A stretch of DNA of 64,000 bases, from the NCBI GenBank assembly GCA_963711735.1, contig CAVQFA010000005.1:135525-199524 (forward strand), in the 5' to 3' direction. Positions within the stretch are counted from its first letter, which is position 1, and every line of letters starts with the position of its first letter. The position numbers and the translations under genes are program-made. Positions 1 to 11,118 of this stretch are shown here, in pieces. The notes below the pieces were generated by a model. The model was given only the letters and a program-made list of their open reading frames with translations, was not told the origin of the DNA and made no database searches. Source of the DNA: Candidatus Gottesmanbacteria bacterium (GTDB lineage: Bacteria; Patescibacteriota; Microgenomatia; UBA10105; UBA927).

Positions 1-3000
1 CCGGATATACCGGTCCGACAGGAGCAACAGGTACAACAGGAGCAACCGGAGATTACGGGCCAACAGGCGTGACCGGTGTTACAGGTCAAGCAGGACCAAC
101 CGGAGCTACAGGGCAAGGTGGTCCCACAGGTGCAACCGGCGTAACCGGAATTCAAGGACCAACAGGTGTTACCGGTTCAACGGGAGCGACCGGACAGACT
201 GGTCCAACAGGTGCCACCGGTCCGACAGGTGAATATGGTCCTACTGGTGCAACAGGACAATTCGGTCCGACAGGATCAACAGGTGCAACCGGAACGATCG
301 GTCCGACAGGATCAACAGGTTCAACCGGTGCAACAGGATATACCGGTCCGACAGGTGCAACGGGATCAACCGGTGCAACCGGACAGTCCGGTCCGACAGG
401 ATCTACCGGATCTACGGGATATACGGGTCCGACAGGGGCAACAGGCGTGACGGGTGAAAAGGGACCAACCGGTTCAACAGGATCAACTGGTGCGACAGGT
501 GATCCGGGTCCGACAGGAGCGACAGGTCAAGCCGGTCCGACAGGTACAACCGGAGCGACTGGTCAATCCGGTCCAACCGGATCAACCGGCGCAACCGGAG
601 CGACTGGTCAATCCGGTCCAACCGGATCAACCGGCGCAACCGGAGCGACTGGTCAATCCGGTCCAACCGGATCAACCGGTGCAACGGGAAATGTCGGTCC
701 AACAGGTGCAACCGGTTCAACAGGAGCAACAGGAGACACCGGCCCAACCGGTGCGACCGGTGGTACAGGTGCACAGGGATCATCCGGTCCAACAGGTGCA
801 ACCGGTTCAACAGGAGAAACCGGACCAACAGGTACAACCGGTGCAACCGGTCAGTCGGGTCCAACCGGTGCAACCGGTCCGACAGGAGAGACTGGTCCGA
901 CAGGATCAACCGGTGCAACCGGTCCAACCGGTACACAAGGACCTACTGGTGCATCAGGTGCAACAGGTGTGCAAGGCCCGACAGGTGTTACAGGTGCAAC
1001 CGGAGAGCAAGGTCCTACAGGAGCAAGCGGAGCAACAGGTCAAGCTGGTCCAACCGGAGTAACAGGAGCAACAGGAGAAACCGGTCCAACAGGGGCAACT
1101 GGTGCAACGGGTGCGCAAGGTGCTTCAGGTCCAACCGGTGCAACCGGTCCAACTGGTCAAACAGGACCAACCGGATCTACCGGGGCAACTGGTGCTACAG
1201 GAGAACGCGGTCCTACGGGAGCAACAGGAGCAACAGGAGATATGGGTCCGACAGGTGCCACCGGACAAACAGGACCTACCGGTTCAACCGGTGCAACCGG
1301 ACAATCAGGTCCTACAGGTACTACGGGGGCAACGGGTGCAACTGGTGAATCCGGTCCGACTGGTTCAACCGGTGCAACCGGACAATCCGGCCCGACAGGT
1401 GCAACCGGTGCAACCGGACGAATCCGGACCTACCGGATCTACAGGATCAACAGGTTCTACAGGACAGACAGGTCCTACCGGTGCAACCGGATCGACAGGT
1501 GCTACAGGACAAACCGGTCCGACAGGTGCAACCGGGGCCACAGGAGAAATCGGTCCGACAGGAGCAACCGGTACAACCGGGGAAATTGGTCCGACAGGGG
1601 CAACTGGTTCAACCGGAGCAACAGGAGAAACCGGTCCGACAGGGGTAACTGGTTCAACCGGAGCAACAGGAGAAACCGGTCCGACAGGGGCAACTGGAGC
1701 AACAGGTGATCGTGGACCTACCGGTGTTACCGGAGCCACAGGAGAGACCGGTCCGACGGGTACAACCGGAGCAACAGGAGAGACCGGTCCGACAGGTGCA
1801 ACCGGAGCAACAGGAGAAACTGGTCCGACAGGTACAACCGGATCAACCGGAGCCACAGGAGAGACCGGTCCGACGGGTACAACCGGAGCCACAGGAGAAA
1901 CCGGTCCGACAGGAACGACCGGAGCAACAGGAGAAACCGGTCCGACAGGAACAACCGGAGCTACCGGTGAGTCAGGACCTACTGGTTCAACAGGTCCTAC
2001 AGGAGAAACAGGACCTACAGGAGCGACTGGTGCTACGGGTCCTACCGGAGAAACCGGTCCTACCGGAGCAACCGGAGCCACAGGAGAGACCGGTCCAACG
2101 GGTACAACCGGAGCGACAGGAGAAACTGGACCAACAGGAACAACCGGAGCAACCGGAGAATCCGGACCGACCGGTGCAACCGGTGCATCCGGGGAAACCG
2201 GTCCAACCGGAGCAACCGGAGCGACAGGTGCAATCTGGACCAACAGGTGCCACAGGCGCAACCGGACTTTCCGGACCAACAGGATCAACCGGTGCAACCG
2301 GTGAATCAGGACCAACAGGATCAACCGGTGCAACCGGTGAATCAGGACCAACAGGATCAACCGGTGCAACCGGTGAATCAGGACCTACAGGATCAACCGG
2401 TGCAACCGGAGAAACAGGACCAACAGGATCAACAGGTCCAACCGGAGAAACAGGACCAACAGGATCAACAGGTCCAACCGGAGCAACAGGACCAACAGGA
2501 TCAACCGGATCAACCGGAGCAACTGGTGAATCAGGACCTACAGGATCAACCGGTGCAACCGGAGCAATCCGGTCCGACCGGATCAACAGGTCCTACGGGT
2601 GAAACTGGACCTACAGGTTCAACCGGAGCAACAGGAGCAACAGGAGCGACTGGTCCAACCGGTGCAACTGGTGCAACCGGGCAGTCCGGTCCGACAGGAA
2701 CAACCGGAGCTACTGGTGAATCTGGACCCACAGGAGCAACTGGTTCAACAGGTGCAACAGGAGAGACTGGTCCAACCGGTGCAACCGGTGCAACCGGAGC
2801 AGTCCGGACCGACAGGAACAACCGGAGCAACTGGTGAATCTGGTCCAACAGGAGCAACTGGTGCAACAGGTGCAACAGGAGCAACCGGACCAACAGGATC
2901 AACAGGATCGCTACCGGTCCAACAGGAGAAACCGGACCAACAGGATCAACAGGAGCAACAGGAGCAACAGGACCTACCGGTGCAACAGGAGCAACTGGAG

Positions 3001-9000: not shown

Positions 9001-11118
9001 ACCGGAGCTACCGGTCAAACCGGACCTACAGGATCCACAGGAGCCACGGGTAATGTCGGACCTACCGGTTCAACCGGATCAACCGGTGCAACCGGAATGG
9101 TCAGGACCTACCGGCTCAACCGGTTCAACCGGAGCAACCGGACAATCCGGTCCTACCGGATCAACCGGTGCGACAGGTAATATCGGTCCGTCCGGATCAA
9201 CGGGTGCAACGGGTCAAACCGGTCCAACAGGTTCCACAGGAGCAACCGGTGAAACGGGTCCGACAGGGTCAACCGGAGCAACAGGACTTCAGGGTCCGAC
9301 TGGTGCTTCGGGAGCAACGGGAGAAACAGGATCAACAGGATCTACGGGAGTTACGGGTCAAACCAGGTCCGACAGGATCAACTGGATCAACAGGGCCAAC
9401 CGGTCAACAGGGTCCAACCGGAACAACGGGATCAACCGGTGCAACCGGGCAGTCAGGTCCCACCGGATCAACCGGTGCAACCGGGCAGTACAGGTCCCAC
9501 CGGCTCAACCGGTGCAACCGGGTGAAACAGGTCCAACCGGAACAACCGGTTCAACCGGAGCAACCGGTCAATCAGGTCCCACCGGCTCAACCGGAGCAAC
9601 CGGTCAGTCAGGTCCCACCGGCTCAACCGGAGCAACAGGTGCAGTCAGGTCCAACCGGATCTACCGGTGCTACCGGATCAACGGGAAGTGCAGGTCCCAC
9701 CGGTTCAACCGGCTCAACCGGAGCAACCGGTCAGTCAGGACCAACAGGATCAACAGGTTCAACCGGTCAAACCGGACCAACGGGATCTACAGGAACAACC
9801 GGAGATGTAGGTCCTACCGGCTCAACTGGTTCAACCGGTGCAACCGGTCAACAGGTCCAACAGGATCAACAGGTTCTACGGGTGCAACCGGGCAGTCAGG
9901 ACCAACCGGTTCAACCGGTGCAACCGGTAATGCTGGACCGACAGGTTCTACCGGAGTAACCGGTCAATCGGGTCCAACCGGATCAACGGGAGCAACCGGT
10001 CAGTCAGGTCCCACCGGCGCAACAGGATCGACCGGACTTCAGGGTCCTACAGGTGCATCCGGTGCCACAGGGGAAACGGGTCCGACAGGATCTACAGGAG
10101 TTACCGGTCAAACGGGTCCGACAGGATCTACCGGTTCAACCGGAGCAACCGGTCAACAAGGTCCAACCGGAACAACCGGCTCAACTGGTGCAACCGGTAA
10201 TATCGGTCCGACAGGATCAACCGGTTCCACAGGTCAGACCGGTCCTACAGGTTCAACCGGTGCAACAGGAGAGACCGGTCCGACAGGAGTGACAGGTTCA
10301 ACCGGAGCAACCGGTGAATCCGGACCTACCGGATCAACGGGTGCAACCGGACAAACCGGTCCGACAGGTTCAACCGGAGCGACAGGTCAATCCGGAGCTC
10401 TACCGGTTCCACCGGTGCTACCGGTGCAACAGGAAACGCCGGACCAACCGGATCAACCGGATCAACGGGAGCAACCGGACAAACCGGACCAACCGGATCA
10501 ACAGGAGCAACGGGGCAGTCCGGTCCAACAGGTTCAACAGGCGCAACCGGTAATATTGGTCCAACCGGATCTACCGGATCAACAGGCGCAACCGGAGAGT
10601 CAGGTCCTACCGGTTCAACCGGATCAACGGGTTCTACAGGGCAATCCGGACCTACCGGTTCAACCGGAGCGACAGGACAATCCGGCCCAACAGGTTCTAC
10701 CGGTGTTACAGGGCAAACCGGTCCAACAGGCTCAACGGGAGCAACGGGAGATACCGGTCCTACAGGATCAACGGGAGCAACCGGACAGTCAGGTCCTACC
10801 GGTTCAACCGGTGCAACCGGAGAAACCGGTCCAACCGGTTCAACCGGTGCAACCGGGCAGTCCGGTCCAACCGGTTCAACCGGAGGGACAGGGCAAATAG
10901 GGCCAACAGGAACTACAGGTGCCACAGGAGAAACAGGTCCAACCGGTACAACCGGTGCAACCGGACCGACCGGATCGATTGGTCCTACCGGTTCAACCGG
11001 CGCAACCGGTGAAACCGGACCTACAGGTGTAACAGGAGCCACCGGTAAACAAGGGCCAACCGGAGCATCAGGAGCAACGGGAGAGACCGGTCCGACAGGA
11101 ACAACAGGTGCAACCGGA
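1..11118 (+). pseudogene. 5' and central part of a giant collagen-like (GPTGxTG) fibre gene. It enters from upstream of the window and is interrupted by dozens of +1/+2 frame changes. It continues into the intact ORF at 11119..18435.
   Basis: The GXY collagen reading jumps between frames 0, 1 and 2. Examples are frame 0 to ~1410, frame 1 to ~2225, frame 2 to ~2570, frame 0 to ~2805, and so on. The overlapping same-strand ORFs 69..1709, 1102..2304, 1706..2602, ..., 4734..9053, 4831..9180 and 5390..10900 each contain alternating GPTG, QPVQ and NRSNR segments. The junction 'ggagcaatccgg' (the GAIR junction) recurs 12 or more times. No single frame is open throughout. Confidence 0.6.

Follow-up and report, generated by a model that had tools for sequence, protein, structure and literature searches.

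The left end of this stretch of DNA raises the question of what became of a giant collagen-like gene whose reading frame is broken again and again. We analysed a 64,000-nt window (positions 135,525 to 199,524 of contig CAVQFA010000005.1, Candidatus Gottesmanbacteria bacterium assembly GCA_963711735.1); all coordinates below are those of the window and refer to the plus strand unless stated otherwise. The window carries four giant collagen-like genes on the plus strand (3-18435, 25010-38164, 40270-50082 and approximately 60506-64000), hereafter genes 1 to 4, and the frame changes lie in gene 1. A sequence-only reading had concluded that either this fibre gene is dead or its assembly is unreliable. 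Our analysis favours the latter, as base-level consensus error rather than repeat collapse: the 62 events that disturb the register are most likely local consensus or polishing errors in one intact giant fibre gene.

The array of gene 1 (3-14661) consists of tandem 9-nt units of the form GGN-NNN-NNN that encode Gly-X-Y, with Thr at Y in approximately 85% of the units and Ala, Pro, Ser, Gln or Glu at X. Because GG is expected every 9 nt, we traced the register by the positions of GG and parsed it at least cost, allowing units of 7-11 nt and penalising the loss of GG. This parse returned 62 length-aberrant units, all of them within 1416-10394 and comprising 51 units of 10 nt (+1), seven of 8 nt (-1) and four of 11 nt (+2), with no aberrant unit in 3-1415 or in 10405-14661. 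The result is approximately 51 net frame changes in 1416-10404, which exceeds the at least 30 hops counted earlier and confirms that most of them are +1 (51 of 62). Event density peaks at 10-12 per kb at 3-7 kb and amounts to 2-6 per kb at 7-10.4 kb, and the last event lies at 10394, in agreement with the previous placement of the densest hops at 3.5-7 kb and of none after approximately 10.4 kb. The individual indels that had been listed are also present, although their positions were off by a few bases (1416-1425, 2227-2236, 2905-2915, 5452 and 5716). The gene is laid out as follows, with amino acid triplets in one-letter code.

3..1415, plus strand: hop-free Gly-X-Thr array of 157 units in one register, gene interior; PF01391 E=1.8e-72 (3-1424).
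1416..10404, plus strand: array with 62 aberrant and 1,085 regular units; first event at 1416, last at 10394-10404; corrected translation PF01391 E=2.9e-109.
2561..2570, plus strand: example of the recurrent 10-nt unit GGAGCAATCC, which holds GCAATCCGG together with the next Gly codon and is followed by a GPT unit.
5250..9050, plus strand: 3.8 kb free of stops in every plus-strand frame; three overlapping open reading frames (ORFs) of 1,439, 1,449 and 1,836 codons.
10405..14661, plus strand: 473 array units that share a single register and the frame of the C-terminal domain; PF01391 E=7e-174 (11119-14661).
14662..18435, plus strand: non-collagen C-terminal domain, to the stop codon; Peptidase_S74 match at approximately 16873-17025.

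Apart from these length changes, the array is in good order. A Gly codon is lost in a single unit (GATCAATCC at 7362), so 1,622 of 1,623 units begin with GG, and all three parts of the array score above the gathering threshold of PF01391 with uninterrupted Gly-X-Y. The sequence as given holds no single translatable frame, and one emerges only after 62 single-site corrections made in silico, the outcome that the sequence-only reading had named as removing its pseudogene call. Skipping or padding the event bases yields one register of 4,869 residues, whose sole stop is a TGA formed within the junction unit GGGTGAAACA at 9520; this unit reads Gly-Glu-Thr once one base of GG(G/T) is dropped. Downstream, the register of 10405-14661 runs uninterrupted into the non-collagen domain of approximately 1,260 residues and ends at the stop codon 18433-18435. 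Because the frame of this 3′ part has been open since 10318, and 11119 is merely its first ATG, GTG or TTG, position 11118, at which the region had been taken to end, is no biological boundary: it coincides with no feature, and the register is unbroken from 10405 through the ATG at 11119. Besides this mid-collagen ATG, the 3′ part has no start, and it has no N-terminal module of the kind found in gene 2 or in a related protein (P0014). No promoter-like site was found on the plus strand in 1-14600, and the only terminator-like site on the plus strand of gene 1 (17552) lies in the C-terminal domain. The whole of 3-18435 would then be the 3′ part of a single gene of more than 6,100 codons with its 5′ end to the left of the window. 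Its product would be a collagen-like surface fibre in which more than 4,800 Gly-X-Thr residues precede a head of approximately 1,260 residues that carries a Peptidase_S74 chaperone module.

The events are confined to one part of one gene. In the 20.9 kb of equivalent arrays in the window (10405-14661, 25799-34210, 41404-47133 and 61472-64000), we found no frame change; the arrays of the three neighbouring genes contribute 16.6 kb without an event, and the other 5.7 kb of gene 1's own array and its 3.8-kb non-repeat domain are likewise free of them. With 62 events in 9.0 kb against none in 20.9 kb, the localisation is extreme and far from chance. The sequence between the events is healthy: the 1,085 regular units span 94% of the hop region, their Thr at Y and their spectrum of X residues agree with the intact arrays, and triplets unseen in intact arrays make up 1.5% of the units, compared with 0-7% in leave-one-out controls.

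The aberrant units have an anatomy of their own. Thirty-four of the 62 events sit in the unit just before GPT, although such units make up approximately 24% of all units; this is the variable unit, which in intact arrays is usually GQS, GES, GET, GQT, GLS or GAS. Further copies of GGAGCAATCC occur at 3805, 4696, 5525, 5798 and 6962, and GGCGCAATCC occurs at 3658, each directly followed by a GPT unit. The junction GCAATCCGG, said earlier to recur at least 12 times, occurs exactly 10 times in the window and is a hop in seven of these; 12 or more are reached only with a looser family (GCAATCT, GCAATCA, GCAGTCC, CGAATCC and so on). The three remaining copies are ordinary in-frame GQS units (10641 and 30292) or non-collagen sequence (49231). 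Among the shift units are approximately 30 distinct 10-mers that share no common motif and have G, T or C as their fourth base. The flanks of the seven frame-changing copies of GCAATCCGG differ at synonymous sites, as do those of the four copies of GGATCCAACCGG, and we therefore regard the copies as separate occurrences of one systematic outcome.

We asked which base of a 10-mer is surplus. Of 50 cases, removal of base 4 recovers a unit that the intact genes use in 43 and removal of base 5 in 39, compared with approximately 21 for a random insertion; removal of base 9 or 10 does so in one case, compared with approximately 14 under the null. In 36 of 40 ten-mers, the surplus can be placed at a pair of unlike neighbouring bases, and a real unit remains whichever of the two is taken out (63% under the null). 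This two-parent union test lends support without settling the matter, since valid units densely populate the possible sequences. The hybrids can be read as follows.

GGAGCAATCC: GGA(G/C)AATCC, from GES and GQS or from GAT and GQS.
GGACGAATCC: the pair of GGAGCAATCC in reverse order.
GGATCCAACC: from GGATCAACC (GST) and GGACCAACC (GPT).
GGATGCAACA: from GST and GAT.
GGTGTCAACA: from GAT and GST.
GGTCCAGACA: from CCA and CCG.
GGGTGAAACA: from GGG and GGT.
GGGCAGTACA: from TCA and ACA.

All seven -1 units can be read as the loss of one A from an A-run, for example, GGTGA(A)ACC and GGACA(A)ACA. Doubling of a neighbouring base fails to account for at least 20 of the +1 units, and the set is therefore not explained by simple slippage. 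The anatomy and the localisation of the events, the healthy sequence between them and the continuity of the corrected frame are direct observations.

From here on we infer a technical cause and the technical step behind it. An assembler or polisher would have fused two alternative 9-nt units into a 10-nt hybrid, with neither alternative kept in the -1 cases; for example, GGA-CAATCC (GQS) or GGAG-AATCC (GES) together with the dominant GGAGCAA-CC (GAT) would give GGAGCAATCC. Such hybrids would be expected where a mixed read pile-up is resolved column by column or where a compound edit is half applied, and polishers may introduce or miss edits in repeats. The mixture could stem from several variants of a rapidly evolving fibre gene present side by side in the sampled population, or from reads misaligned by one repeat unit or placed ambiguously in the GAT-rich stretch; alternatively, the local cause could be a stretch that polishing missed or damaged. 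Residual small-indel consensus errors in long-read genomes and metagenomes resemble what we see here, in that an ORF is interrupted by indels of one base, the protein signal can be followed into another frame and correction restores one long frame. In contrast to the usual errors of this kind, those in gene 1 are confined to approximately 9 kb of one gene, are biased towards insertions and fall in the variable repeat unit rather than in homopolymers, whereas long homopolymers and approximately 21 kb of similar arrays are clean.

Several observations weigh against this explanation. Compared with the intact part of gene 1, the hop region shows no excess of repeats (in both, the best ungapped matches of 180-mers elsewhere in the window average approximately 77% identity), and more repetitive arrays with long exact repeats are frame-perfect. 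Thus, in gene 2, 55% of 31-mers and 44% of 101-mers are repeated within the window (4.9% and 0% in the hop region), and its 180-mers find a best match of 89% on average, half of them reaching at least 90%, yet its frame is perfect. The 21-60 kb part of the window contains 17 runs of at least seven A/T or at least six G/C, mostly in long ORFs, none of which is broken (no run of either length occurs in 1-21000). A generic error process is excluded, and because the rest of the assembly is clean, the cause must be local and has to be assumed. Self-identity at a shift of 9 nt is raised only at 3-7 kb (0.70) and is 0.60-0.61 at 7-10.4 kb, so misregistration by one unit accounts for only part of the pattern and not for the events at 7-10.4 kb. 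Synonymous third positions are not clearly hit as often as the first positions of X codons, as two haplotypes would predict, and a Rayleigh scan over periods of 60-3000 nt gave no polisher-window periodicity. Finally, the case for consensus error is an indirect one, built on the sequence of the window.

The same evidence bears on the other explanations. If the indels are real, the gene would have been lately inactivated or truncated by an insertion-biased, repeat-specific process confined to 9 kb, before substitutions accrued, and translation from upstream would end at 1707-1709. Such a lesion is favoured by the accuracy of the remaining assembly, both at long homopolymers and in other repeats, since a purely local error needs special pleading. 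Moreover, the abandoned frame shuts within 30-285 nt after each early hop, as in a frameshift mutant, and all seven -1 events and possibly approximately 30 of the +1 events can be written as a slippage-like change in the length of an A-run. We nevertheless consider a real lesion, although it is the strongest of the rival explanations, unlikely. The A-runs involved are 1-3 nt long and not prone to slippage, at least 20 of the +1 units do not derive from the duplication of a neighbouring base, and no event occurs in the 8 kb of the gene that lie downstream, of which 4.3 kb are repeats of this type. In bacterial pseudogenes, substitutions dominate and indels are biased towards deletions; the excess of insertions (51:7) and the near absence of substitution damage among 62 indels are therefore the opposite of bacterial decay. 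That the 62 length changes are truly present in cells, through a localised, insertion-biased process that leaves no substitutions and acts mainly at the pre-GPT unit, appears improbable to us; if they are, the locus may be a recently silenced hypervariable gene, an untranslated reservoir of cassettes or a fibre made by pervasive +1 recoding. Nor does the locus resemble a phase-variable contingency locus, given 62 separate sites and A-runs of only 1-3 nt. The sequence-only reading had gone further and proposed an ancient inactivation in which frameshifted units were spread by tandem duplication, to which gene conversion can be added. Like decaying pseudogenes, the hop region has multiple frameshifts in one reading frame, and one 10-nt unit recurs seven times exactly and approximately 16 times loosely. 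Unlike them, it shows no substitution damage and more insertions than deletions, its sole stop in the register lies in a junction unit, and the rest of the gene is untouched. Under neutrality, 62 indels should be accompanied by several times as many substitutions, approximately 2/9 of them destroying GG. We rejected old decay on the loss of one Gly codon in 1,623, on the 1.5% of novel triplets and on the lack of events in 10405-18435. Amplification of junction units was rejected as well: the flanks of GCAATCCGG and GGATCCAACCGG differ, long near-identical segments are missing, and adjacent units are not recent duplicates. Among 139 adjacent pairs at 3-7 kb in which both units code for one triplet (mostly GAT-GAT), the two DNA sequences agree in 7.9%, compared with 15.1% after shuffling, a pattern that looks like the long-term upkeep of a coding array in which codons are scrambled and exact tandem repeats are avoided. 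An ancient pseudogene is hence scarcely credible.

Structural mis-assembly, with collapsed or wrongly joined copies of near-identical repeats and the junctions as the seams, was the other half of the earlier proposal. The 9-nt tandem array and the concentration of hops in its simplest, GAT-rich part would suit it, but k-mer multiplicity and 180-mer identity show a region without near-identical long copies, the far more repetitive gene 2 is frame-perfect, and each junction is a change of one or two bases in a continuous register with no breakpoint. We dropped repeat collapse on these grounds and hold mis-assembly to be very unlikely. There is also only a slight chance that the hops are both real and functional, whether through frequent +1 recoding or quadruplet reading or as a silent cassette archive that recombines into an expressed gene. 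Nearly all +1 units do parse as GGN plus an extra base plus a valid X-Y pair, and the stretch 5250-9050 is free of stops in all three plus-strand frames. Within that stretch, GGT precedes GAx, AAx or AGx in 1 of 20 units, compared with approximately 35% elsewhere (p of approximately 0.002, a post hoc estimate), and GGT followed by GAx creates TGA. This depletion is weak, post hoc and largely explained by simple composition, and we judged selection for open alternative frames to be weak, since stops close the abandoned frames in 1-5.2 kb. Recoding would further demand near-perfect efficiency at each of approximately 60 shifts per protein, and no tRNA gene, suppressor tRNAs included, was found in the window. 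In contrast to a programmed +1 frameshift of the prfB type, the shift units are heterogeneous and share no conserved slippery site. As for an archive, no other array in the window is more than approximately 85% identical to any 180-mer of the region, which leaves no recipient for cassettes.

We also searched for independent copies and relatives of gene 1. The translation of 14602-18432 matches Peptidase_S74 (PF13884) at residues 758-808 with 27.3 bits, above the cut-off of 22, and this module is predicted to be an intramolecular chaperone. The closest relative of the C-terminal domain is a metagenome protein of 1,533 residues (P0001; 50% identity over 98% of the query), whose array keeps to a single frame until its 9.5-kb contig (L004) ends inside it. 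More distant relatives come from metagenome-assembled genomes (MAGs) of Woesebacteria, Gottesmanbacteria, Levyibacteriota and the 'Patescibacteria group'. In the Logan assembly of run ERR12037368, the neighbouring proteins are identical, and one contig reaches 1,278 codons into gene 1 from its 3′ end and breaks off precisely at the border of the collagen array; a literature search under this run accession returned no papers. A scan of genome contigs gave distant relatives only and no second copy of the locus. Protein searches with the corrected collagen sequence found no independent copy, the results being swamped by generic collagen proteins, and those with the out-of-frame mosaic found no match. 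Two DNA scans of Joint Genome Institute (JGI) metagenomes with junction-spanning and unique patterns found no copy, and exact look-ups of 12 ORFs from three of the giant genes (10 of them in the hop region) were negative.

In its overall plan, gene 1 resembles BclA of the Bacillus and Clostridium exosporium and the fibres of Pasteuria, which share long unbroken Gly-X-Thr arrays, Thr at Y and PF01391; the search matches include a 'BclA C-terminal domain-containing protein' and many collagen-like proteins from MAGs of Patescibacteria (Gottesmanbacteria). It differs from BclA-type fibres in the far greater length of its array (more than 4,800 residues), in a Peptidase_S74 head instead of the BclA C-terminal domain, and in its setting, a Patescibacteria-type genome where four giant paralogues are clustered. 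Phage tail spikes and fibres with an endosialidase-type Peptidase_S74 likewise carry PF13884 near the C-terminus of a fibrous protein, but no phage genes lie near gene 1, whose neighbours encode a pilin-like N_methyl protein, a PMT_2/TPR glycosyltransferase and a LytR_C protein.

The four genes form a fibre-gene cluster in a genome of the Patescibacteria (Candidate Phyla Radiation, CPR) type. The neighbouring genes, which include those for CarboxypepD_reg proteins, the LytR_C protein and a TrmB regulator, fit such a genome. The features beside gene 1 are the following.

18485-24337, minus strand: block of four genes next to gene 1, encoding a 463-codon protein without a family match, a pilin-like protein, a CarboxypepD_reg protein and a PMT_2 plus TPR glycosyltransferase.
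19873-20496, minus strand: pilin-like protein with an N-terminal methylation motif (N_methyl).
25010-38164, plus strand: gene 2, 4,384 codons; two N-terminal domains of the HTH_17/MerR type, an 8.4-kb Gly-X-Thr array (25799-34210) and H_lectin.
40270-50082, plus strand: gene 3, 3,270 codons; array at 41404-47133; Gly_rich_2, H_lectin and SH3_3.
Approximately 60506-64000, plus strand: gene 4; hydrophobic N-terminus resembling a signal peptide, array at 61472-64000; runs off the window.

The PMT_2/TPR glycosyltransferase could plausibly glycosylate the Thr-rich fibres. In P0014, an N-terminal module like that of gene 2 is followed by a hydrophobic stretch and then by a collagen array, and the N-terminal module of gene 1 presumably lies upstream of the window. 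Gene 2 and the relatives P0008 and P0014 carry the HTH_17 module as part of the fibre protein itself. An ORF of 630 codons with an N-terminal HTH_17 (38381-40273) overlaps the start of gene 3 by 4 nt and may represent either a gene of its own with coupled translation or a fusion that has been split. The array of gene 2 shows in-frame register shifts at 27641, 28790, 30146 and 30692, which together with its long repeats suggests large tandem duplications of approximately 1.15-1.4 kb. Opposite gene 2, the minus strand holds ORFs at 25780-29202 (1,140 codons) and 30919-33939 (1,006 codons), and gene callers are likely to emit spurious SNRSNR, EQPEQP or PVAPVG repeat proteins from such open non-coding frames. 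With respect to composition, the Gly codon GGC accounts for 22% in 10405-14661, compared with 2-9% in 1-10404 and 5-11% in genes 2 and 3, and GC content climbs to 0.65 at 12-14 kb. A low-GC patch at 24001-26000 (0.39, compared with 0.45-0.65 elsewhere) covers intergenic sequence and the 5′ end of gene 2 and includes an A9 run at 24698.

Beyond this locus, the analysis provides a sequence-only test to tell decay from consensus error in repeat genes, which comprises three checks: how insertions, deletions and substitutions are balanced, whether the periodic signal holds between events, and whether aberrant units can be composed from two valid ones. Should the hops prove real, an unknown indel process of very local action or a recoding system would be indicated; unless the indels are real, the main weight of the finding lies in the annotation of the locus and not in new biology. 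If the hops are errors, gene callers will break up a gene of more than 6,100 codons into some dozen spurious ORFs, which overlap in all three frames and reach 1,836 codons, and give its true C-terminal part a false start at 11119. The locus would then read as four intact giant genes for collagen-like surface fibres.

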